The position numbers were made by a program, and so were the translations under genes. The notes under the pieces are model-generated. The model was not told the origin of the DNA. It saw nothing but the letters and a program-made list of their open reading frames with translations, and did not search any database. 40,514 nucleotides of DNA from a virus: IMG/VR virus record IMGVR_UViG_3300045988_176499, one strand, 5' to 3'. Positions 7,291 to 31,496 of this stretch are shown in pieces. Numbering within the stretch: position 1 is the first letter of the stretch; each line of letters starts with the position of its first letter.

Positions 7291-7411
7291 TTTTTTGCTC
7301 TCCTTTACTTTTTTTTGCGTGTCCGGGCTTGTGACCGGGCTGCCGCATTACCAGCCCCGGAGGGCTGTCACTCTGCGTGTGTGGTGTCGAGGCGGTAGAT
7401 ATCATAAGTGC

Positions 7412-8064: not shown

Positions 8065-8139
8065 GATTTTCGCCCTTTCCTATATGATACTTTTTTTCGG
8101 TGCCGGGCGGGGGTGGACGGGCCCCGCCCGGGTGTTTGG

Positions 8140-8448
8140 TTAGATCGTCGTGCGCTCCAGCTCAGCCAGCATCAGGCGAGCGCGGGTCGCGTCGTGCAGT
8201 CGCTGCGCTTGCTTGGCGTCTGCCAGACTGTCGTCCGGCTCGACTTTGAGCATCTGCATCAGCGATCTGATCGCGCCGGTCTCACCGAGCAGCAGCGCAC
8301 ACTCTCGGTCGCTACTCTCTGCGAGCGTAAGCTCCTGTCTGCTCTTGCAGCTCTGCGCCAGCTTGCTGCGCCTCATCTCGTATGCCAGCTGCGCATCAGC
8401 CAGCCGCACTTGCAGGATCCATGCGATTTTTTTTGCAGTCATAGGCAT
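8140..8448 (-). CDS. Hypothetical protein, 102 aa; first gene of the accessory operon
   Basis: ATG with an AAGGAGGA RBS immediately after the 1.6-kb non-coding region. Confidence 0.4.
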   Translation of the reverse strand: MPMTAKKIAWILQVRLADAQLAYEMRRSKLAQSCKSRQELTLAESSDRECALLLGETGAIRSLMQMLKVEPDDSLADAKQAQRLHDATRARLMLAELERTTI

Positions 8449-9139
8449 CCTCCTTGACTTTTGGCGGAGCCTATGGTATCATATAGGTACCGTGTCCGCC
8501 TCTGTGGATTCGGCCGGCCATCGCATCCGGGAGTCAGCTGTCCAGGCCTTTTACCCGGTGCGATGGTCTTTTTTTGTCCGCCGGACTGTCTGCCCGGCTG
8601 ACACATATAGTATAGCACGTCTGCGGGCGGTTGTCAAGTATTTTCGAAAATTTTCTTCGATACGCTTTGGCGTGCCCTCATAACAAAACGTTATGGAGTG
8701 ATTTTTTTTATGTTTTTGGGTAGTAGGGTGGGGGAAGTATACCATATATGGCGCGTAGCGGGTTCGCCTGTATCCGCACTTTTTTGGGGCTTTACCTGGC
8801 ATATCGCCGTCCGCGCTCCGGCGACTGTGAGTGTACACGGCGTATGCAGAGGTACATATGCGCGCTTGTATATGGTATAGCAGTCCGGCTGAGTGGTAGG
8901 TGTAGGCGATATGCGGTGCTATGTATGCATGATATACAGTGATATACATATGTATATGTATATATATGCATATAGAGGAGCAGTGAATTAAACAAAATGC
9001 GCGTTTTGTTTAATTGGAAACCCGTGTGGTATTTGTGCCATATGGTCTACCCTTGCCCCGAATAGGGGGGCGCTTCGGGACGGGAGGTAGATATACCTAT
9101 CTATCCTCACGCCAACAACGAAACAGAATCAAAGAAGAT

Positions 9140-9600
9140 AAGTTGGATAGATGAATGAATATATATTCTGATTATCTTCATACCGGAAAAGAGAAAGCCA
9201 AATAGAAAAAAAGGAGAAGAGAGAAGAAGAACATAGAAATACCTATACCACCTCACACCGAGAATAAAATAGAATCAAAGAGGATAAGGGGGGGGAAGAT
9301 AGGATGGAGAGTAGTAGTATATATATAATATATATAATATAGGGGTGTGGGGGGATAAGATAGACCCTTGAACCATAAGGGGGGTAGGAAAATAATAGGG
9401 GGGTATGGGGGATTAGAAAAAAGAGTGGGGAGACGGAAGAAAGAGGGGGAAAAAGGTAAGAGATAAGGAGCGGGTGAGATGAGATAAAAAGAACCGCCCT
9501 GAATGACAGAGCGGTTTGGGTGGAAGATGTAAGGGCGAGAAGCTTTTTTTGTAGGGGTAACAGAAAAGACCGAGGGAAAAGGGGAAGTTTGCGGTTGATG
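9140..9600. repeat. Polypurine tract on the plus strand of about 460 bp, inside the 1.6-kb non-coding region 8449-10067
   Basis: The plus strand is almost exclusively A/G with many GGA and AAGGAG-like motifs. ORFs in the track across this region are low-complexity. Confidence 0.6.
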
Positions 9601-9776
9601 TATACCACACAAGTCATCTAAAAATGGTGGGGAATCTCCCCGCCGCTCGGTGGACCTGGGTTTTTCAACCAGCCCGATTTGTGATGTCCGACACCACCAT
9701 AGGCATTATACCACAAAAAATACCACTTTGTCAATGACGTCTGATATACCAGATGTCGGGTGATTGCTGTTTTGGA

Positions 9777-9820
9777 TAACTTGCTTGCAACTTGAAACCA
9801 ACTTAAAACCAACTTGCAAC
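9777..9820. repeat. Four tandem 11-bp repeats of form CAACTTG(A/C)AAC, followed by TGTGGAAC
   Basis: Read directly: taacttgcttg, caacttgaaac, caacttaaaac, caacttgcaac. The period is close to one helical turn. Confidence 0.5.
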
Positions 9821-10067
9821 CTGTGGAACGGAGAAGCTATTGGGTTGGATGGTTCCTGTTCGAAGTGGTATCCGGTTTATTGGTCTATGTGGGAATGGAC
9901 GAATGAAAGGAAAGCATACCAGCAGGACGCATTGGGGGAATCTGAGCAGGATTTGAGCTTGTGGCAATAGCTCTTTTTGAACGCATCAATGTCGAAAACT
10001 GTGCCGGTGAAGATGTCACATGGCGGGCCGAACAACTCAACGAGGGTGGAACAGATTTCGGAATGTG

Positions 10068-10424
10068 TCAGAGGGTGGTACATTTGAATGGCTCCTTTCT
10101 ACGGTAATTCTGTCTGGATTCGTACATACGAAGGATTTGTGGCATGTAATGGCAGGCAACGAAATATTCGACGCGGCAACCGCGGGCGATATCCCAGTCT
10201 TTCGCGAAGAAGATGACGTCTGCGGTGGTCATGCGTTTCAGGGAATCTGCCAGACAGCAGACCGGCAGAGGGCGTTCGCCTGATGTGAAGGGGAGCGGGT
10301 TGATGACCGTAATGTCTTCGTTTGGGAATCTGGACTTGACACGGGCGATGGCGCGATAACGGGTTTTCACGATTTCTTTGTGGGTTTTGCCTCGCATGGG
10401 CATGGAAATGAACAGGTTGATCAT
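10068..10424 (-). CDS. DUF4406-like protein (nucleoside 2-deoxyribosyltransferase-like fold), about 118 aa
   Basis: ORF 10068..10502 trimmed to ATG at 10424 (MINLFISMPMRG...), with a GAGGAGG RBS embedded in the poly-Glu codons of the upstream gene. The pattern M.NLFISMPMRG ... WDIARGCRVEYFVA matches the DUF4406 consensus. Confidence 0.5.
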   Translation of the reverse strand: MINLFISMPMRGKTHKEIVKTRYRAIARVKSRFPNEDITVINPLPFTSGERPLPVCCLADSLKRMTTADVIFFAKDWDIARGCRVEYFVACHYMPQILRMYESRQNYRRKEPFKCTTL

Positions 10425-10795
10425 TCTTCTTCCTCCTCGATTGGCGTGAACCAAAATTTCTTTTTGCATTCGTGACAGTTTGTTCTGCATGTTGCAGTGC
10501 AATCAAATACGCGTACACAGGCTCTCGGTAAATCAGATGGATAATTGTAGTTTGGGAACAGCTTTTTGAACTCCGACAACCGCGTTTTCACCGGATGCTC
10601 TTTCGCCCATTCTTCGACAATTTTAACAATTTCATTTGGTTGTCTTCGGGCAAAAGTGAAACACGTTGTGATTTCGCCATCTCGTATTTTCTCATGTATA
10701 TTGCAGCCAGCACATTTACTTAAGTTATACTGATTTTTCTCTCTAAAATAATCGCACATTCTTTCTTTTTCTCTCAAAAATTCAATTGCATCCAT
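10421..10795 (-). CDS. Cys-rich small protein ending in EEEEE (poly-Glu tail)
   Basis: ORF trimmed to ATG at 10795 (MDAIEFLREK...) with an AAAGGAG RBS. The Cys cluster CVRVFDCTATCRTNCHEC is near the C-terminus, which ends PIEEEEE. Confidence 0.5.
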   Translation of the reverse strand: MDAIEFLREKERMCDYFREKNQYNLSKCAGCNIHEKIRDGEITTCFTFARRQPNEIVKIVEEWAKEHPVKTRLSEFKKLFPNYNYPSDLPRACVRVFDCTATCRTNCHECKKKFWFTPIEEEEE

Positions 10796-15385: not shown

Positions 15386-15621
15386 AAGGGCAATTCGTCT
15401 TCATTTGGCTCGTCGCCGTCTTCCTTGAAGATTACCATGACGCACCAAATTGAACGACCGTTGACCCGCTTTTTCTGCGTTGACCGGTTTTTTTTGCCGT
15501 CCACGCTTCGTATTGACACGCCCATTCGAACCGCCTCGTTGAACACATCTTTCGGCGAGAACCCCGCCTTTTTCAAGACTTCCTGCCACTTGCTGGAACA
15601 CATTTTGAGTATGGAACACAT
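15382..15621 (-). CDS. Standalone paralog of the primase C-terminal domain, ending DEPNEDELPF
   Basis: The sequence SKWQEVLKKAGFSPKDVFNEAVRMGVS...VNGRSIWCVMVIFKEDGDEPNEDELPF aligns with the last about 75 aa of the primase (SKWQEVLKKAGYSPKDVFAEAVRMGVS...VNGKKIRCIQVRFKDDFDDENGDELPF). The upstream in-frame MCS codons are module-B iterons, so the true start is uncertain. Confidence 0.5.
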   Translation of the reverse strand: MCSILKMCSSKWQEVLKKAGFSPKDVFNEAVRMGVSIRSVDGKKNRSTQKKRVNGRSIWCVMVIFKEDGDEPNEDELPF

Positions 15622-15928
15622 TTGAAAACAGCGAAATGTGTTCCACGTCGCTGAACTTTTTGGCGGCAATAAGTAAGGAAAAACGTTGATTATATATATT
15701 ATTTAGAACGAATCATATATATATAATCGTATGTGGAACACATGGAACACATGGAACACAAGTTTTTACTTCTCACGCGCGTACGCGTATATACACGCGC
15801 GTGTATAGCTTATTTTTTCGCGTGTTTCATGTGGGACATGTGTTCCAAAGCCTGAAAAGCCTTGGCGCTCTAAGGATTTCGGTGGAACACATTTCGCGTA
15901 AATCTGGAACACGGAACACATCTTAGAG
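15537..15928. promoter_or_regulatory. Origin-like module B: iterons TGGAACACA/TGTGTTCCA, an AT-rich stretch and the same conserved core; tandem paralog of module A
   Basis: Read directly: (TGGAACACA)x3 at 15734-15760 and copies at 15541, 15595, 15612, 15636 (inverted), 15841 (inverted), 15883 and 15905-15920. Conserved blocks shared with module A are gaatcatatat(g/a)tataatcgtatgtg, tttttac(c/t)tctcacgcgcgtacgcgta and cttggcgctctaaggatttcg. Confidence 0.7.
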
Positions 15929-21389: not shown

Positions 21390-21431
21390 TTTTTTCTCCT
21401 TTTACAGAACCAACTTTTAATTGGCAACTGT

Positions 21432-21460
21432 ATTATACCAACTGATTGTTAGTTTGTCAA
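21432..21460 (-). promoter_or_regulatory. Consensus sigma-70-type promoter for the early lytic operon: TTGACA, 17-nt spacer, TATAAT
   Basis: Minus strand reads cTTGACAaactaacaatcagttggTATAATacag. The -10 box is flanked by CAGTTG direct repeats, which are candidate operator half-sites. Confidence 0.6.
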
Positions 21461-23993: not shown

Positions 23994-25046
23994 ATGGCAA
24001 CAGCACGAAAACAGGACGATGGACGCTGGGCTGTACAAGTCTATGTCCGGCGGGATATCGACGGGAAGCAGCGGCGGAAACGCATCTATGGGCGCACGAA
24101 ACGCGAGGCGGAGCTTGCTGCGGCACAATGGGAAGTGAAGAAGCAGCACAACGTCGGGGCGGGAAATCTGACGGTTGGGAAGGCGATTGACGATTACATT
24201 GAAGAGCGTTCAAATATTTTGTCACCGTCCAGCATTCGAACATATAAGCGAATCGCCAGAAATATCGAATCATGGTTTTTAATGCTTCCGCTGGAATCGG
24301 TCGAGGCGGAAGACATTCAAAAATTGGTCAACCGGTATGCCGCAACACATGCGCCAAAAACGGTTAAGTCGCAAGCCGATCTGATCATCGCGGTCTGGAA
24401 AAAAGCGAATGACGGAAGAGTCCCGAAGATTGTTCTGCCGAGATTGGAGCGGAAAGAAGTCTCCGTTCCGGAGCCAGAAGACATTGAAACCCTGCTTCAA
24501 TTCGTCAAGGGCACGGACTATGAAATCCCGATTTTGCTGGCGTCTCACATGGGGCTGCGCCGGGAAGAAATCTGCGCTTTGACATGGACAGATATCAACT
24601 TTGAGGAAAAAAGCCTGACAGTGAAAAGCGCACTTGTGAAGGACGACAAAAACCAGTGGGTCAAGAAAACGACGAAGGCGGAAGCGTCAAAACGGGTCTT
24701 GCTAATCCCTGAGCGGGTGTTGAATGTGCTGGACGAAAAACGTGAACCGACGGGGAATGTATGCAAGTTGAAACCCAGTACGCTGACCAGCAAACTGCCG
24801 GGGATTATTCAGCGTGCGGGGCTTCCGCCATTCACGATTCACACGCTGCGGCACTACTATGCATCGGTGCTTTTATCCATCGGGGTTCCAATCAATTATG
24901 TTGCAGATGAGCTTGGACACGCAACAAATAGTATGGCGGAGCGGGTTTATGGGCATATTATGTCCGGTGCAAAAACGCAAATTCGTCGCAAAATCCTCAC
25001 GCACTTCAACGGGAACGGTGAACAGGAAAGTGAACAGCAAAATTGA
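23994..25046 (+). CDS. int: Tyrosine site-specific integrase
   Basis: 350 aa. The C-terminal catalytic region contains HTLRHYYASVL (H-x-x-R), LGHATNSMAERVY and a Tyr. The N-terminal region is SAM-like. It is adjacent to a tRNA-derived attP region. Confidence 0.9.
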   Translation: MATARKQDDGRWAVQVYVRRDIDGKQRRKRIYGRTKREAELAAAQWEVKKQHNVGAGNLTVGKAIDDYIEERSNILSPSSIRTYKRIARNIESWFLMLPLESVEAEDIQKLVNRYAATHAPKTVKSQADLIIAVWKKANDGRVPKIVLPRLERKEVSVPEPEDIETLLQFVKGTDYEIPILLASHMGLRREEICALTWTDINFEEKSLTVKSALVKDDKNQWVKKTTKAEASKRVLLIPERVLNVLDEKREPTGNVCKLKPSTLTSKLPGIIQRAGLPPFTIHTLRHYYASVLLSIGVPINYVADELGHATNSMAERVYGHIMSGAKTQIRRKILTHFNGNGEQESEQQN

Positions 25047-25463: not shown

Positions 25464-28400
25464 CTATTTTGCCGTGGAATTTTTCTGGCTGAAGTAGGCT
25501 TCCGAGTTCTGGAAGACCTGTCGGACAGCGGCTTTTTTGGCTGCTGTGCTGAGCTTTTTCAGGGCGGAAACCTTGGTTTCAGCGTCCGCGTCGGATGTGA
25601 GAATATCCTCTGCATTTTGGTAGTATTCCGCGATATAGCCGGTGTTGTAGGCGAAGTATTCCGCATAGCTGAGCGGGATGTCCTGATGGCCGACGCGTAT
25701 GGACGTTTCAACTGCTTTTGGGAGGATGGACATATCGCCCGTTTCGACGGCGAGGGCTTTTAGCTTTTCGACGGTTGCGGACGTGTCTTCTGTCTGACGG
25801 TCTGACATGAACTGGTCGAGCATTTGGAGCATAGTGACCTTTGCCGTGCGGGTGTTGGGGTCATTTTTGCTGCTTGCCTGAGAGAGCAGGCCGCTGGCGC
25901 GGCTGTAAAACGTCGCCTGAGCGTCGTAGAGCGCTTTTTCGGCTTGCAGTGCCTTGTTATCCGGGTAGGTCGTTGCTTTCGTTGTGAGGTCGCTGCGCGC
26001 ATCGTAGAAGCGGTTGGTGATGTCCTGGCTGTACACGCTGTCTTTGGTGAAGCCGAGCGTTGTGCTGAGGCCTTCCAGCGAGAGCGGGTTTGCCGCCTGC
26101 GAGCCGTTGACGGGGAAAAGATTCTGCTGGACGGTCTGGACAAAGCCGAGGCTTTTCAGCGCGTAGTCGATTTTCATCGGCGACCAGCCGAGCGCTTTGC
26201 CTGCCGCCTGGGCGAGCTTGGATGTTTTGTCGTTATACTGCTTCCACGCTTCAACGCCTTCGAGGTTCGCCGGAACGATGGGGTTGCCGCGGTAGTCGAT
26301 GTTGAGGATGGCGCCGAGCGGGGAGCCGATCCAGCCGAGGGAGTTGATCGCCGTGCCGAAAAACTGACTGCCGCCGTCTGTGCTGCCCATGCCGCCGGGG
26401 ACGAGGTAGAGCGAATCTACAATTTTCGGCAGAAGCTGATCCATGCTGTAACCGGCGAAATCGTAGAGGGCATTCTCGTTATTGTAGAGTTCTTCTTCGA
26501 CCAGACGGGCGGTCAGGGACGTCAGGATGCCGAGTTCACGCGGCTTGCGCACGGTGAAGAATTTCCCGTTGCCAATGTAGATGCAGTAGGAGTTATTCTT
26601 CTGGTATGTAGACAGGCGCGAATAGGCCTCTTCGGCTTCTTTGTCGCCTGGGTCAAAGCCTGTGCCAGCGAGGGCTTCCAGTGAGCCGAGGACGATGGAC
26701 GCAAGGGCGAAGTGCGTGAGCCGCTTGGCCGCCGTTTCCACGCGAGACTGTCCTGCCTTTCGGTCGAGTCCGGTGAGATAACGGTACTCTTTTGTCAGAC
26801 CTTGCAGCCCGGCATTGAAGAAGGGGACGACGCGGTTGATCTTCTTCGACCAGATGCCGCCGCGGGAGAAATCCGTCGTGATGTTGGCGGCGCGGAACAG
26901 GGCTTCTTCTGCGGACATGCCTGCCTTTCGGCTGAGGACATATTCGTTTGCGCGGAGATACTGTTCGATGCCGCCGGAGAAGCCTTCCCACGCTTCGCCG
27001 GCTTTGCGTTTTGCCTGCTTGAGTTTCTGCACCGTTTGGGAGTCCTTGCTGCTGTCGAAGACGGCGTTTGTGTTGCCGGAGACGCCTTCGCCCCAGCCGC
27101 CGAGCACGAAATATTCACGCATGGTCTGGTCGCTGCCGGAGCCGGTGAACATTTCCTGAAAGAACGGTTTTGTGTTGCGGGCGACTTCTGCAAGCAGGCC
27201 GCCGAACTCTGACATGCTGTCCTGCGTCATCATGGCCGTTTGGAAGTCGCGCGCGGGGTTGGATGCGATGTTGAACGCCGGGTTCATGGTCGTGACGAAC
27301 GACGTAAACTTCCGGTTCATTTTCGCGATGAAGCGGGCGACCGGCCCGATGGTTTCCGGTTTCATCGCTTCGAGCGCATCAAACAGCGTTTTGTCGTGGA
27401 CGTGATAGCTGACCTCTTTGCCGTCCTTAAAATAGCTGACGTAGTCGCCGCCTTTGCGGGCGACCTTGGTGATTCTGGTCAGGACGGACGGGAGGACGGC
27501 TTGCAGGATATCTTCGACTTCTTCCGCGTCGATGTCATAGCCGCGGGACGCGACTTCGGCAATGGCGTCTTTCGTGAGCTTTGCAGCGGCCTGATCGGTT
27601 TTCAGCGTTTCGACCTTCGTCTGCTTGGGCGCCAAATCCGCCAGCCAGCCGAGACCTTCTGTGTTGTGGATAGACTGAAAGATCATGGCGCGCGCGCGGT
27701 TCAGCCGCCCCGCCTGCACGGCGTTGTTGGTGAAGCTGATGATGTTGTCGAGAATCGGATTGACGTCACGCGTGGAGCCGTACTGCCGGTGAACGACCTG
27801 ACCGTCTCCGGACTTGCCCTGCTTTTTGCCGGAGACTTTGGTATCGTTTTCAAAAAAACGGTTCATCGGGACGTAGTTCGGCGCTTCTCTGTCCCAGGCA
27901 TCCGCCTGCTCCTTGGAGATCAGCCCCGTGCCGACGAGCCATGTATCCCGCACGTTTTTGACAAATTGGACGGTCGCTTTGGCCGCGTCCTGAATGCCGG
28001 GGTACTGTGCTTCGAGGCTGGCGAGCGCAGATTGCATGGCTGTATCGGAACTTAGCGTCGGGTCGGCGAAGATCTGGACACCGCGGGCTTGGTCTTCGAG
28101 CGCGTGCTGAATGCCGAGGTAAGTGTTCAAGGCAGCTCTGTGCGCCTGATCGTCGAAATTCAGGTTTCCGGCCTTCATTGCTTCGACGAGACTGCCGCCG
28201 GTCTTCTGGCCGTTGACGTCTGTGACGCCTTGCAGGACGCACTGCGCTGCCTGAGACTGAGCGTTGCGCGTGGCTCTGACGGCAAACTCGATATCGCGGC
28301 TGCCTGTGAGGTCGGCGACCTTTTTGGCGCCGTAGAGATCGTCTGTGATGTGGGTCAGCCACCACTCTTTTGCTTGGGTGTAGGTGTCTTTGCTTTTGAG

Positions 28401-31400
28401 CGCTTCGAGCTTGGACGTCTCTGTTGTCGTCGGGTTGAAGGCGAGACCGTATCTTGTCAGCGCGTCACTGCCGAAATAGCGGTTTGATTCCGCAAAGACT
28501 TCTTGGAGGTTCTGCCATGTTTTGGCGTCAACCGCCGTTTGGAGGTACTGGGTCATGGCGGGGTAGGCTTTTGCGGCGGCGTCAGCGTTCAGCATGGTTT
28601 CGCGGAAGAATTCTGCGAGACCTTCTACCACATGGAGTTGTGCGGGATAAGCCTGTTTCATCGCCGGAGAGAGGTTTCTTTCCAGCTCCGACCGGACGAC
28701 GGGGTCTGCTTTTTTCAGCAGGCTGAACCGTTTATCCATGGCGTGACCGGCTTCATGCGCGAGGACGGGGAGGTCGTTGGTCTGGCGGACGTGAACGTTT
28801 TCCGACTTCGTCATAAATTCGCCGATGGCGCTGCGCAGAAACATTTCTTTTTCCGCAACAGTTAGTTTCAACTTACTCTCTGTAAACTTCCGCAGATCAG
28901 ACAGGGAACGGCTCTGCCCTTCGCCGGATTTTTTGGCGTCGCCAATCCATTGGGATGATGGAGAACGCGCGGCTTGCGTTTCCTGCGGCTGAGACGAACG
29001 CTGAGAAGCGTTTTGCGATTGGGCGGTGTAGTTTAGCGGTTCGACAAACGCGCCGTTCTGAACGGTCTGTGCGCCCGAAAAGGACATTGCCTGAATGTTT
29101 TGTAATTCTGGTGTGCCGGAAAGGGATTTCAACTCGGCGCGCTGTTCCGCTTTTGTTTTGCCTTCGAGGTTGAGCCGAATACCGGCGTTGCTGAGCTGCT
29201 GCAGGGCTTCCGGGCTGGCGAGGATGGATTCTGCCTGCGAGTTGGTGAGCGGTTTGCCGGTTTTCAGGGTTTGCAGTGCGTCTGCTGTTTTGCTGGTGGG
29301 CTGTGCGGTTTGCGCGGCGGTTTGCGCGGTTTGTACGGTTTGCGCGGCTTTATATTTGGCGGGGTCGATGGACAGGCCGTTTGCCGCGTCTAACTGCATG
29401 AATCGGATGAGATTGCCGCGTTCTACCGCCGTGAGCGGCGTCTGCTTGGCTGCCAGCTCTTTGGCCAGCCGGTAGGATTCGGCGCGATCGTCCATTTGAA
29501 GCGCCTGTTTGAGGATGGAGGGCGCGGTCTGTCTGCCTGTTTTGGCGTCTCCGACGGCGTTGATCGCCGCGCCGATGCCGGTCATGGCTGCGCCGGACAG
29601 TGCGCCGCCTGCGCCTGCGAGGACGATGTCACCGATGGTATCTAAAATGGCCTGTTTGGATGCTTCTGTCGCCGACATGCCGCCGGACGTCTTGTATGCT
29701 TCGACCTTCTGGCTGAGCTTTGACAGGTCACCCATGAGGAGATAGTCGGTCACGGCGTTCGCCAGTTCGGTGGCCGCTTCTTCCTGCGCGTTTGTGAGCG
29801 CGGATTTTGCCACATCAGCGACGACGGAGCGGAGGCTGGAGCGGCCGGTCGTCCGGAGTGCCTTGACTTCGGAGAGGCTGTATTTTTCAAACAGCCCTTC
29901 AAAGACACCGGCGAGCAGACCGCCTGCGAGCGCCTGTTCATCCGAGCCGCCGCGCGCTGCGATGTCTCTTGCCGCGGAAGCGCCTGCGCCGGTTGCGAGG
30001 ATGGCTGCGCCGAGCGTGGGGCCGCCCACATAAGAGGCAAGCAGGCTGTTTGCCATGGAGACGCCGGTCTGGTAGAGGAAAGACCAACCGGAACCGTATT
30101 TTCGGTTGATTTTTTCAGCGACGGTTCCGGACAGCGTTTCCGGCGTTGCGCTGTTTCGCTGCGACGGCGTGTTGAAATCGATGGGCTGACCGGTGAACGC
30201 CTTTTTCACGCCCTGTGTGGCAAGGTCTGCCGCACCGGCAAGACCGGCCAAGGGGGACAGCGCGATGGACGCCGCCGTAGCAAGCGTTTCATGCTTGTTT
30301 GCAAACGCCTCCATGCGCTGCTGCTGGTCTTCTGCGGCGCGGTCGTCGAGCAGGGGTTTCAGGCTGTTGAAATAGTCGACCGCCGCCTTATAGCCGCGGG
30401 TGTTTAGAAGATAGCTGGCGACGTCGCGTTCCGACGGCTCCATGAAGTTGACTTTTCCGAGGGTTTCATCCATGGAGAGCTGCTTTGCATCCGTTCCGGT
30501 TGGGTCGGCGAGCATTTTGCTGATGCGGCGGGCGGTTTCATAGGTTTCGCGGTCTTTCGTGAAGAGCTTGGGCGCGTCGCCTTCCAGCACCTTGGGCGCT
30601 TTGTTGGCGGCGAAATCAGGAGCGCTGGTGACTTCGCTTTCGATGCGGTTTTTCACCTGTGCTTCCGGGGATTCCTGTGCTTTGTACCGGTCGGCGAGAT
30701 AGGCTTTCAGCAAATCGAGGTGGAATTTTTCATTTTCATGCTGGCGGTCATAGGCGTCTGCGCCGGACTGACCCAGATTGGCGGCTTTTGTGAGCGACAG
30801 GCCGTTTCCAACACCCATGTTTTCGGTTTCCCGGTCTTTCTGAGACTGCCGAGCCTTCTGCCGTTCGGATTCATATGCTGCCTGCGCTTCGTCGTAGGCG
30901 ATTTTCAAGTCGGCGTAGGATTTGCCGTCCCACTCCTGCATGTACTGGATGGCTTTTGCCTGTTTGAGTTCTTCGCTGTTTGCGGCGCCATGCAGACCGG
31001 CTTTGTTCAGCCGGTATTGAATTTCAGACGGTTTGCCGCCCTTCTGCGCTTCGTCTGAAAGGGCGAGGCGGTCAAACGCCTTCCGGTTGGTGGGGCTTTC
31101 AAAGTTTTGGCGTTCCGGCTTTGGAGCGGGCTGATTTGCCCTTGCCGCCATGCGGCGGCGGGTTTCCGCTTCAGCCGTCATGGATATGCTGTTGTCTTCG
31201 CCGGTGCGCCACGCGGCTTCGTAGCGGCGGGCAGCGGCTCTTTTTTGCCGCGCGATTTCCACATCGTCCTGCGGGAGGGATGCCAGCCCGTTGTTATACC
31301 GCGTTGTCCATGCTTCCGCCGCTTCGGCGCGGCGTCTGCGCGCTTCTTCTTCCTGCCGCTCCTTCTGGCGGGTCGTATTTTCGTACTGCCGGATGGCAGA

Positions 31401-31478
31401 AGCCCCTCGGCGGACGCCTCCGCTTTGGTTCAGCTTCGCCTGCGCGGCGGCATATCGCTGGAAAAGGTTGTCAGCCAT
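25464..31478 (-). CDS. Giant virion protein, about 2004 aa (tape-measure, ejection or polyvalent-like), with Gly-zipper hydrophobic segments and a HExxH metallopeptidase-like motif
   Basis: ORF 25464..31496, but the preferred start is ATG at 31478 (MADNLFQ) behind a GAAGGAGG RBS. The HExxH motif is in VLAHEAGHAMDKRF at about nt 28735-28760. Glycine-rich hydrophobic stretches are GGPTLGAAILATGAGASAARDIAARGG and GDIVLAGAGGALSGAAMTGIGAAINAVG. It is the last gene of the late operon after the capsid genes. Confidence 0.6.
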   Translation of the reverse strand: MADNLFQRYAAAQAKLNQSGGVRRGASAIRQYENTTRQKERQEEEARRRRAEAAEAWTTRYNNGLASLPQDDVEIARQKRAAARRYEAAWRTGEDNSISMTAEAETRRRMAARANQPAPKPERQNFESPTNRKAFDRLALSDEAQKGGKPSEIQYRLNKAGLHGAANSEELKQAKAIQYMQEWDGKSYADLKIAYDEAQAAYESERQKARQSQKDRETENMGVGNGLSLTKAANLGQSGADAYDRQHENEKFHLDLLKAYLADRYKAQESPEAQVKNRIESEVTSAPDFAANKAPKVLEGDAPKLFTKDRETYETARRISKMLADPTGTDAKQLSMDETLGKVNFMEPSERDVASYLLNTRGYKAAVDYFNSLKPLLDDRAAEDQQQRMEAFANKHETLATAASIALSPLAGLAGAADLATQGVKKAFTGQPIDFNTPSQRNSATPETLSGTVAEKINRKYGSGWSFLYQTGVSMANSLLASYVGGPTLGAAILATGAGASAARDIAARGGSDEQALAGGLLAGVFEGLFEKYSLSEVKALRTTGRSSLRSVVADVAKSALTNAQEEAATELANAVTDYLLMGDLSKLSQKVEAYKTSGGMSATEASKQAILDTIGDIVLAGAGGALSGAAMTGIGAAINAVGDAKTGRQTAPSILKQALQMDDRAESYRLAKELAAKQTPLTAVERGNLIRFMQLDAANGLSIDPAKYKAAQTVQTAQTAAQTAQPTSKTADALQTLKTGKPLTNSQAESILASPEALQQLSNAGIRLNLEGKTKAEQRAELKSLSGTPELQNIQAMSFSGAQTVQNGAFVEPLNYTAQSQNASQRSSQPQETQAARSPSSQWIGDAKKSGEGQSRSLSDLRKFTESKLKLTVAEKEMFLRSAIGEFMTKSENVHVRQTNDLPVLAHEAGHAMDKRFSLLKKADPVVRSELERNLSPAMKQAYPAQLHVVEGLAEFFRETMLNADAAAKAYPAMTQYLQTAVDAKTWQNLQEVFAESNRYFGSDALTRYGLAFNPTTTETSKLEALKSKDTYTQAKEWWLTHITDDLYGAKKVADLTGSRDIEFAVRATRNAQSQAAQCVLQGVTDVNGQKTGGSLVEAMKAGNLNFDDQAHRAALNTYLGIQHALEDQARGVQIFADPTLSSDTAMQSALASLEAQYPGIQDAAKATVQFVKNVRDTWLVGTGLISKEQADAWDREAPNYVPMNRFFENDTKVSGKKQGKSGDGQVVHRQYGSTRDVNPILDNIISFTNNAVQAGRLNRARAMIFQSIHNTEGLGWLADLAPKQTKVETLKTDQAAAKLTKDAIAEVASRGYDIDAEEVEDILQAVLPSVLTRITKVARKGGDYVSYFKDGKEVSYHVHDKTLFDALEAMKPETIGPVARFIAKMNRKFTSFVTTMNPAFNIASNPARDFQTAMMTQDSMSEFGGLLAEVARNTKPFFQEMFTGSGSDQTMREYFVLGGWGEGVSGNTNAVFDSSKDSQTVQKLKQAKRKAGEAWEGFSGGIEQYLRANEYVLSRKAGMSAEEALFRAANITTDFSRGGIWSKKINRVVPFFNAGLQGLTKEYRYLTGLDRKAGQSRVETAAKRLTHFALASIVLGSLEALAGTGFDPGDKEAEEAYSRLSTYQKNNSYCIYIGNGKFFTVRKPRELGILTSLTARLVEEELYNNENALYDFAGYSMDQLLPKIVDSLYLVPGGMGSTDGGSQFFGTAINSLGWIGSPLGAILNIDYRGNPIVPANLEGVEAWKQYNDKTSKLAQAAGKALGWSPMKIDYALKSLGFVQTVQQNLFPVNGSQAANPLSLEGLSTTLGFTKDSVYSQDITNRFYDARSDLTTKATTYPDNKALQAEKALYDAQATFYSRASGLLSQASSKNDPNTRTAKVTMLQMLDQFMSDRQTEDTSATVEKLKALAVETGDMSILPKAVETSIRVGHQDIPLSYAEYFAYNTGYIAEYYQNAEDILTSDADAETKVSALKKLSTAAKKAAVRQVFQNSEAYFSQKNSTAK

Positions 31479-31496
31479 CGTTGAGACCTCCTTCAT

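Follow-up and report, generated by a model that had tools for sequence, protein, structure and literature searches.

Site-specific recombination at short core sites serves multimer resolution or cyclisation in pairs such as ColE1 cer with XerCD and P1 loxP with Cre. To our knowledge, plasmids, filamentous phages and some tailless phages are so far the only carriers known to hijack host Xer recombinases. The plasmid sites ColE1 cer and pSC101 psi borrow the Xer enzymes of the host (PMC5357621), and the integrative mobile elements exploiting Xer (IMEX), which include CTX-phi, VGJ-phi, TLC-phi and the gonococcal genetic island, carry a dif-like site whose arms mimic those of the host dif (PMC5357621). 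On the chromosomal side, difSL, which lies beside a single xerS gene, provides a precedent for Xer/dif systems that run on a single recombinase (PMC1914069, PMC5357621). Here we describe a dif-like site in a temperate gut phage, represented by the IMG/VR virus record IMGVR_UViG_3300045988_176499 (40,514 nucleotides (nt); hereafter the window). The site, a palindrome at 8986-9015, lies in a gene-free island of the genome, and its arms match those of a putative chromosomal dif in Oscillospiraceae and their relatives.

A phage palindrome with the arms of a host dif site

The palindrome consists of perfect 12-bp inverted arms around a 6-bp spacer (AATTAAACAAAA-TGCGCG-TTTTGTTTAATT); it is unique in the window and found no match in 100 shuffles. 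An earlier note on this DNA had recorded the perfect inverted repeat, correctly, as a hairpin; judged by its arms, this hairpin reproduces the host dif site. Scanning one genome per prokaryotic species for the exact arms separated by a 4-8-nt gap returned, among the matches listed, more than 120 genome contigs in which the arms agree at 24/24 positions, nearly all of them from Oscillospiraceae, Oscillibacter and other Clostridiales. The host spacer is usually TAAAGA or TAAAAA, and CTGTGA in the rumen/Mageeibacillus group. An open reading frame (ORF) of ~335 amino acids (aa) with its own promoter lies 55-135 nt downstream of the host site in about 45 of the 69 oriented cases. Its product is a Xer-family tyrosine recombinase (XerC, 235 bits; XerD, 228; XerA, 210) that scores below the equivalog cut-offs of XerC, XerD, XerS and XerA alike, with XerD as its best PDB match (7e-39).

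A switch in GC skew is a signature of the replication terminus, and such a switch coincides with the host site: of 60 loci whose flanks were long enough, 55 have a higher skew on the left of the site than on its right (means +0.04 and -0.04; binomial p ~5e-12). Words polarised toward the terminus are likewise expected for translocase-guiding motifs, and the flanks of the host site hold AGGGAAG at 160:9 and GAAGGGGA at 84:3 pointing toward it, as derived from 102 loci. Because of the skew switch and the usual position just upstream of a Xer-family recombinase gene, we take the host site to be dif; on this sequence comparison, the arms of the phage palindrome are the arms of the host chromosomal dif. 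The phage host itself probably belongs to the Oscillospiraceae. A role of the palindrome as an operator or ribosome-binding leader was considered and rejected, as the GGGGAGG found by host sites precedes only tiny ORFs and xer adjoins the opposite side. Rfam found nothing on the host dif loci.

The host system most closely resembles XerS/difSL of streptococci and lactococci, XerH/difH of Helicobacter and XerA of archaea, with which it shares an inverted repeat, a 6-bp spacer, a skew switch and an adjoining single Xer gene. It differs from all three in its arms (AATTAAACAAAA), in its recombinase and in the perfect palindromy of the site. Our literature search found no description of an Oscillospiraceae dif/Xer system, which is no proof of novelty.

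Relatives of the phage were reached through homologues of the 100-aa protein encoded downstream of the island, which gave eight related contigs that were then aligned. Across nine phage sequences, 23/24 arm positions are invariant, compared with 2/6 in the spacer and 45% of the surrounding 300 nt. The spacers read CGCGCA, TACGCA, TCCGCA and TACCTA, and every phage genome carries the site in one copy. Conserved arms around a free spacer favour a recombinase core site, since an RNA hairpin would covary and a passenger would decay. Searching IMG/VR with the exact 12-6-12 palindrome gave no matches, and the 10-6-10 version was present in only seven contigs.

Two host loci have arrangements that look like Xer-inserted elements at dif. 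The Candidatus Scatomorpha merdavium locus (L081, 6824-6930) has a second, degenerate site, ATTATAACAAAA-CATCCG-TTTTGTTTAATT, 43 nt past dif, followed by foreign-looking DNA, and L052 has two full sites (710-739 and 1616-1645) 906 bp apart.

Given arms identical to those of the host dif, the phage might integrate there through host Xer, in the manner of CTX-phi and VGJ-phi, as a second route besides the one through its own integrase. The pattern TA...A is common to the host spacers TAAAGA/TAAAAA and to three of the four phage variants, the fourth, the window's CGCGCA, having only the final A in common, and other elements do appear at host dif, as the degenerate site 43 nt away in L081 illustrates. 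However, an integrated relative, L034 (a 183-kb scaffold), carries an uninterrupted island in the middle of the prophage; the phage encodes an integrase with an arm-binding domain; its spacers match the host at only 1-3 of 6 positions; and no phage-related DNA was seen at any of 120 host dif loci. The uninterrupted island of L034, together with the phage's own integrase, means that the site is neither the phage attachment site (attP), which the same scaffold rules out, nor evidence of dif integration, and we consider such integration improbable. The phage also departs from the IMEX, which integrate at dif without an integrase of their own: here an integrase is present, the spacer differs, the site is internal in L034, and neither integration at dif nor flanking dif sites were found.

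The non-coding island and its boundaries

Because both flanks and almost all phage genes lie on the minus strand, we read the gene-free island from right to left. Its true non-coding span is 8443-9876 (1434 nt), shorter than the interval 8449-10067 of the earlier note because a conserved 68-aa ORF (9877-10083, minus strand) occupies the right end of that interval. The claim that no credible ORF exists there thus holds for 8443-9876 and fails at 9877-10083, where the 68-aa ORF is called in every assembly, both full ones as well as the relatives, and sets the right-hand limit of the non-coding DNA. This ORF, which has no Pfam or PHROG match, and its neighbouring gene show 94% identity to the related contig L035. 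Two long minus-strand ORFs inside the polypurine tract (124 and 119 aa) were rejected by all gene callers, and are by-products of a purine-poor strand devoid of stop codons.

The earlier note had also allowed that the region could be an assembly artefact of low-complexity reads. Low-coverage assemblies do tend to break within 9320-9670. Yet BRIT16-1 scaffold_959, assembled independently from a different sample, matches the window at 100% identity over 8100-10550, so that two full-length assemblies agree, and diverged homologues occur in at least eight other contigs from different studies. Another 15 short contigs, assembled from other gut metagenomes, match 8100-9417 and 9528-10550 at 99.9-100% identity. 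An artefact is contradicted by this agreement, and we give it virtually no weight.

Comparison with related phages shows the non-coding stretch to be common to related gut phages, in the form of a modular patchwork. Island sequences are 77-83% identical to those of the relatives while the neighbouring genes reach 94-96%, and most of the island therefore drifts about as fast as unconstrained sequence. Against this background, the stretch bounded by the terminator at 9516 and the promoter at 8609, within which the dif-like site lies, forms one conserved module that is kept in L034-L041, L163 and L164.

Terminators and a C/U-rich tract beside the site

An intrinsic terminator at 9484-9516 (minus strand; 10-bp stem with 6 G-C pairs, tail CTTTTTAT) ends the upstream early/accessory operon, and in all relatives stands directly after the upstream gene or the repeats. 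Around the site, the minus strand presents two intrinsic terminators followed by a ~400-nt untranslated C/U-rich stretch, and the plus strand two terminator-like hairpins, among them a weak, partly conserved one at 8758-8786 that faces the dif-like site. Given terminators on both strands and the tract between, the dif-like site therefore lies in a zone that transcription from either side should not reach.

The tract (9100-9483; C/U-rich and G-poor on the transcribed minus strand) is a candidate Rho-loading or insulator spacer. It had been described as almost purely A/G over 9140-9600. It is indeed purine-rich, and nowhere else in the genome do 100-nt windows reach 75% purine, but purines reach only 73% over 9140-9600 and 78% over 9185-9470, compared with 47.5% genome-wide; the motif AAGGAG, said to be dense, occurs just twice. 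The expectation of a CU-rich transcript was borne out, as minus-strand RNA from 9290-9490 would contain 39% C, 40% U and 3.5% G. Dinucleotides of a pyrimidine followed by C number 34 per 100 nt in this stretch versus 13.6 genome-wide (2.5x), the C/G ratio attains its genome maximum of 32 in 80-nt windows, and the minus-strand RNA folds no better than shuffles (z = -0.65).

Rho-loading sites are marked by C-rich, G-poor, unstructured and untranslated RNA downstream of the end of an operon. Judged by composition, the tract plausibly forms such a rut-like zone: C-rich, G-poor, weakly structured, untranslated RNA extends here past the at least 70-80 nt of a rut region. The tract thus resembles rut sites such as lambda tR1 in its composition, in its lack of structure and translation and in its place past an operon end, but at ~400 nt it is far longer than typical and has a conserved core. 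Relatives hold tracts of 400-650 nt with the same strand polarity (C 28-31%, G ~10%), into which lineage-specific blocks of 73-95% pyrimidine have been inserted. Sequence and length drift among them, with frequent indels.

This drift invites another explanation, namely that the tract is functionless, low-complexity filler between functional elements, lengthened and shortened by slippage and by local duplications. Its divergence is neutral-like and its indels many, and a ~80-nt block specific to the window and a ~150-nt block specific to L034/L163 share the composition of the tract. Nor do substitutions preserve purines or pyrimidines: selection to that effect was examined and discarded, the transition/transversion ratio being 1.65 in the tract compared with 2.8 in neighbouring genes, and the RNA has no excess structure. 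Set against filler are the 400-650 nt of one strand polarity in every relative and a ~130-nt core (9297-9425; C-runs, a small hairpin CCCTTATGGTTCAAGGG and a TA-repeat of variable length) that is almost invariant among sequences otherwise ~75% identical. We regard filler as somewhat unlikely, though as an account of the tract it is nearly as good as Rho loading.

Two further proposals concern the physical form of the tract or its transcript. As non-B DNA, either G-quadruplexes on the plus (non-template) strand or triplex H-DNA, it would block polymerases or mark the site. Eight of the 13 genome windows with a G4Hunter score of at least 1.5 fall in 8710-9452, with the maximum of 2.08 at 9379, and relatives retain the G-runs; but the tract lacks a canonical four-run motif (loops up to 12 nt). 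Its one long stretch of pure purines (9203-9231) falls in a block specific to the window lineage and missing from every relative, which speaks against the H-DNA suggested earlier. Non-B DNA seems to us very unlikely. The tract might otherwise be transcribed as a long regulatory RNA, either a C/U-rich anti-Shine-Dalgarno or protein sponge from the minus strand or a G/A-rich RNA from the plus strand. A perfect promoter points into the tract in the window lineage, the plus-strand fold is somewhat better than shuffles (z = -2.57), and the conserved C-runs resemble, in our comparison, the C-rich seed regions of Firmicute small RNAs. Yet two terminators stand between that promoter and the tract, the promoter is missing in all relatives, the minus-strand fold matches shuffles, indels are frequent, and no Rfam family emerged at permissive thresholds (E up to 5), GOLLD- and ROOL-like RNAs included. 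The long structured or sponge RNA of the earlier note is therefore disfavoured by its fold, by near-neutral divergence with indels and by terminators on its flanks, and we assign it a similarly slight chance.

A role of the purine tract as an array of FtsK orienting polar sequences (KOPS) or SpoIIIE recognition sequences (SRS), guiding FtsK/SpoIIIE, was also rejected: host polar motifs are scarce in it, and those present point away.

What the phage site may be for

Taken together, the sequence data point, at about even odds in our estimate, to a minus-strand operon junction built around a private Xer site, which terminators and a Rho-loading-like tract would shield. On this account, the single host Xer-type tyrosine recombinase would bind the phage site and recombine two phage copies. 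The outcome would be the resolution of dimers of the circular form, whether replicating or episomal, or else the cyclisation of DNA with terminal redundancy. The non-host 6-bp spacer would block full exchange with chromosomal dif and permit phage-by-phage exchange, and the terminators and tract would keep transcription off the recombination site and stop early transcription from running into the downstream operon. The anatomy of the island, its modular inheritance, the identity of the arms to dif and selection on the arms are observed directly; Xer action at the phage site, the purpose of that site and an involvement of Rho are what the model would add.

Such a site would find its counterparts in cer, psi and loxP, which share with it a single-copy core site with its own spacer, a circular replicon and self-by-self recombination; they differ in their carrier, which is here a tailed temperate phage that encodes an integrase. 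Plasmid sites of the cer/psi type have, beside the core, about 180 bp of accessory sequence to which architectural proteins bind. The neighbours of the phage core are conserved ~55-nt repeats and a conserved 60-nt block.

Several observations weigh against a shielded Xer site. A lytic cycle with headful packaging has no obvious need for dimer resolution, the phage encodes its own integrase, and the integrated relative L034 retains the island intact. The assignment of the phage arms to the dif of the phage's own host was made from the clade. The site could also be a passenger captured from the host terminus, although the pattern of conserved arms and free spacer opposes this. As for the shield, the tract is near-neutral (77-83% identity versus 94-96% for genes) and may be slippage-prone, functionless filler, and its ~130-nt core at 9297-9425 is far better conserved than a Rho-loading site requires if only its composition matters.

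A stronger version of the shielded Xer site, in which a tailed, integrase-bearing temperate gut phage has domesticated host dimer resolution for its own genomes, leaving the chromosome untouched, and keeps its site in a transcription-free zone, formed by convergent terminators and a long C-rich tract that is Rho-loading or G-quadruplex-prone, strikes us as possible but short of probable. A literature search found no description of a tailed, integrase-bearing phage with an exact host-dif mimic and a private spacer, which is no proof of absence. The parts themselves are of known kinds: an Rfam family, intrinsic terminators, promoters, a cis-antisense RNA and a Xer-type core site. Among them, the dif-like 'hairpin' is the element of interest, and the polypurine tract probably has the least to tell.

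A mosaic of separately inherited modules

Rather than one element, the island combines modules that have been inherited independently of one another. At its right end, an array of phased 11-bp repeats (9777-9821; GTTnCAAGTTG on the minus strand) was resolved by Tandem Repeats Finder (TRF) into 3.1 copies of CAACTTGAAAC at 9788-9821 (score 54) and a degenerate copy at 9777, in agreement with the four phased repeats reported at 9777-9820. The array has a single location in the genome and is conserved in L034-L040 with variable copy number; L163 lacks both the repeats and the 68-aa gene, and the array therefore travels with the upstream gene module. It is probably a protein-binding array, and we list it as a candidate for one.

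Within the conserved module, two diverged copies of a ~55-nt direct repeat (core GTGAGGTGGTATAGGTAT) lie at 9088-9142 and 9234-9288. They are 78% identical, which confirms the two ~50-bp repeats seen earlier, and a third, weaker copy is also present; relatives have two to four copies, and the ~80-nt block between the two is private to the window lineage. The TA/CA-rich, microsatellite-like stretch was likewise recovered, at 8930-8974, where it adjoins the dif-like site and is conserved in relatives.

Smaller motifs add to this picture. The word TGGTAT has 11 of its 30 genome occurrences in the island, a ~9-fold enrichment, and may be a binding site. Extra TGGTATA motifs were examined as promoters and dismissed, as only three sites have credible -35/-10 pairs. 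Two related short palindromes, TATACCATATA and TATATGGTATA, lie 120 nt apart within 8449-10067. No relatives of the island were found by BLAST against INPHARED phages, nor by IMG/VR searches with the flanking proteins. In practical terms, the case shows that a striking 'polypurine island' may consist largely of spacer that evolves fast, with a few short elements under constraint inside it.

The replication origin lies elsewhere

A secondary origin or a partition site was among the possibilities raised in the earlier note. If the island were a secondary origin or a partition/centromere site, its repeats would act as iterons and the TA-rich stretch as an unwinding element; the phased 11-bp repeats, the two to four ~55-nt repeats, a TA run of 22-31 bp and a strong strand asymmetry all fit this, as does TGTGGAAC, which stands beside the 11-bp repeats and shares TGGAAC with the iteron of the phage origin. 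A textbook iteron origin, however, is found elsewhere. The probable origin occupies 15594-15921, a 325-nt gap directly after the DUF927/CHC2 primase-helicase gene, in which eight exact copies (15594-15891) of the iteron TGTGTTCCA and two near ones, pointing either way, surround an AT-rich core at ~15685-15730; its layout resembles SaPI/P4-type origins. All exact TGTGTTCCA copies in the genome fall within 15594-15921, and none occurs in the island within one mismatch. The reported TGTGGAAC is thus present after the 11-bp repeats, but is not an iteron core, TGGAAC being all that it shares with TGTGTTCCA. Moreover, an insertion of 270 bp that parts the 11-bp repeats from the remainder of the island is tolerated, L163 lacks the repeats altogether, and no partition genes were seen in scans of the phage genes. 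With the iterons all at 15594-15921, the evidence goes against a secondary origin, and an origin or partition role for the island appears improbable to us.

A DUF3800-XI small-RNA cassette

The 270-bp insertion (9517-9785, minus strand), identified by comparison with the relatives, is lineage-specific and constitutes a self-contained small-RNA cassette. L035-L040 have its flanks directly contiguous, and in L034 73 nt of unrelated filler replace 9732-9603. An Rfam check of the island, proposed in the earlier note, found here a DUF3800-XI small RNA (RF02975; model positions 1-48/48, 63.5 bits versus a gathering score of 37.8, E = 6.5e-12), running from 9676 to 9629 on the minus strand with a U-run to ~9620. 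Its structure agrees with the family in having a 5' hairpin with a GAAA loop and a 2-nt bulge and a 3' G-C hairpin GGGGAGATTCCCC followed by the U-run ACCATTTTT. The 3' hairpin and U-run are predicted to form an intrinsic terminator, giving a transcript of ~79 nt. Upstream lies a sigma-70-type promoter, TTGACA-18-TGgTATAAT (9705-9734, minus strand), that matches the consensus at 12/12 positions and has an extended -10; it is comparable with the early promoter at 21440, and the DUF3800-XI match begins 29 nt further on. Rfam detected no DUF3800-XI motif in the relatives.

The DUF3800-XI family was found by Weinberg et al. in 2017, who proposed no function (PMC5737381); the motif came to light beside DUF3800 protein genes, which do not enter its model. 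DUF3800 itself is now described as RNase H-like, with links to mobile elements and to defence systems (PMC13594972). The RNA in the window is like the described family in its full-length match, in its order of a GNRA-loop hairpin and a terminator hairpin and in its phage/Clostridia context, and unlike it in having its own consensus promoter and no DUF3800 protein gene. No DUF3800 protein (PF12686) was found in the ORFs scanned or in the gene tables of this phage, and no DUF3800 gene stands beside the motif in four other phages (L004, L005, L006 and L010). Among 13 IMG/VR contigs with the motif, none has a pyrimidine tract behind it and several have tRNA-like sequence there; L011/L012 have a near-consensus promoter 36 nt upstream. 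In L002, L004 and L009, the motif has tRNA-like sequence directly after it, or homing-endonuclease, RNA-ligase or PhoH genes as neighbours, and it appears to be a marker of the early/late junctions or the tRNA regions in phage genomes. The cassette gives this orphan family a clean context, with a promoter and terminator of its own, and its presence or absence between near-identical phages amounts to a natural experiment.

The downstream promoter and an antisense RNA

At the left end of the conserved module, the promoter TTGACA-17-TGcTATACT (8609-8637, minus strand; 11/12 consensus positions) feeds the downstream operon, beginning with the gene that flanks the island, which encodes 100 aa from its called start. 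No relative departs from the -35 and -10 boxes, and the spacer between them varies freely. The assignment of this flanking gene to DUF4406 is weakly borne out (Pfam E = 0.14); PHROG matches it to nucleoside 2-deoxyribosyltransferase at 3.9e-9. L035-L040 have a GNAT acetyltransferase gene directly after the start point of this promoter (3344-3721 in L035, corresponding to ~8600 in the window); it is a classic moron, and the phage of the window is without it.

Facing this operon is a putative antisense small-RNA gene (8454-8575, plus strand), with a promoter TTGACT-17-TGgTATCAT at 8454-8482 and a terminator stem at 8518-8566 followed by a U-run. The RNA (~8485-8575, ~90 nt, two hairpins) would be complementary to the 5' untranslated region of the 100-aa gene. 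The unit is conserved in nine relatives, including L163 with its different sense gene, and the promoter boxes are kept in all nine even where the spacer differs. Five of the 29 predicted pairs show compensatory double changes, and several G.U pairs are valid only on the plus strand; this covariation supports a real antisense small RNA. As in lambda OOP and P22 sar, a short terminator-ended RNA issues from a promoter that faces an operon leader, with conserved boxes and structure, but no sequence relationship links either of those to the RNA described here.

The phage genome

The window represents a complete temperate phage. Its 119-bp terminal direct repeat implies a circle of ~40.4 kb. Locus coordinates imply an offset of 15133 bases between the window and ENA contig k119_222078, which has the same length, the two being apparently different linearisations of one circle. 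The integrase with its arm-binding domain is encoded at 23994-25046, and further genes include the DUF927/CHC2 primase-helicase, Gp157, DUF551, terminase, portal, capsid, holin, a GH25 lysin and a 2010-aa polyvalent protein. The ORF for this last, with an LPD38 'large polyvalent protein' domain (25464-31496, minus strand), adjoins the integrase. A perfect promoter, TTGACA-17-TGgTATAAT, at 21405-21440 (minus strand), in the lysogeny-switch region between helix-turn-helix genes, is probably the main early promoter.

A type-P5 twister ribozyme at 7323-7377 (minus strand; RF02684, 65.2 bits versus a gathering score of 37.6) sits between a 95-aa and a 94-aa gene in the operon downstream of the island, and would cut the polycistronic RNA there. 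L034, L035, L036, L037 and L041 have it at the equivalent position.

On the plus strand, G exceeds C almost throughout, though the minus strand carries almost every gene; the coding strand is thus C-rich, the reverse of the usual Firmicutes bias. Host-type polar motifs are few in the window and favour the plus strand 8:1.

Implications for Oscillospiraceae and their phages

If the host site and its neighbouring gene are what they appear to be, they would constitute an uncharacterised single-recombinase Xer/dif system of the Oscillospiraceae, with xer beside dif and polar motifs of the AGGGAAG and GAAGGGGA type. They would supply a testable candidate dimer-resolution site and recombinase for a clade in which genetics has hardly begun. 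Use of the phage site by host Xer would extend Xer hijacking to ordinary tailed temperate phages of dominant gut Firmicutes, and the arms of such sites would offer a sequence-based clue to the hosts of uncultured phages.

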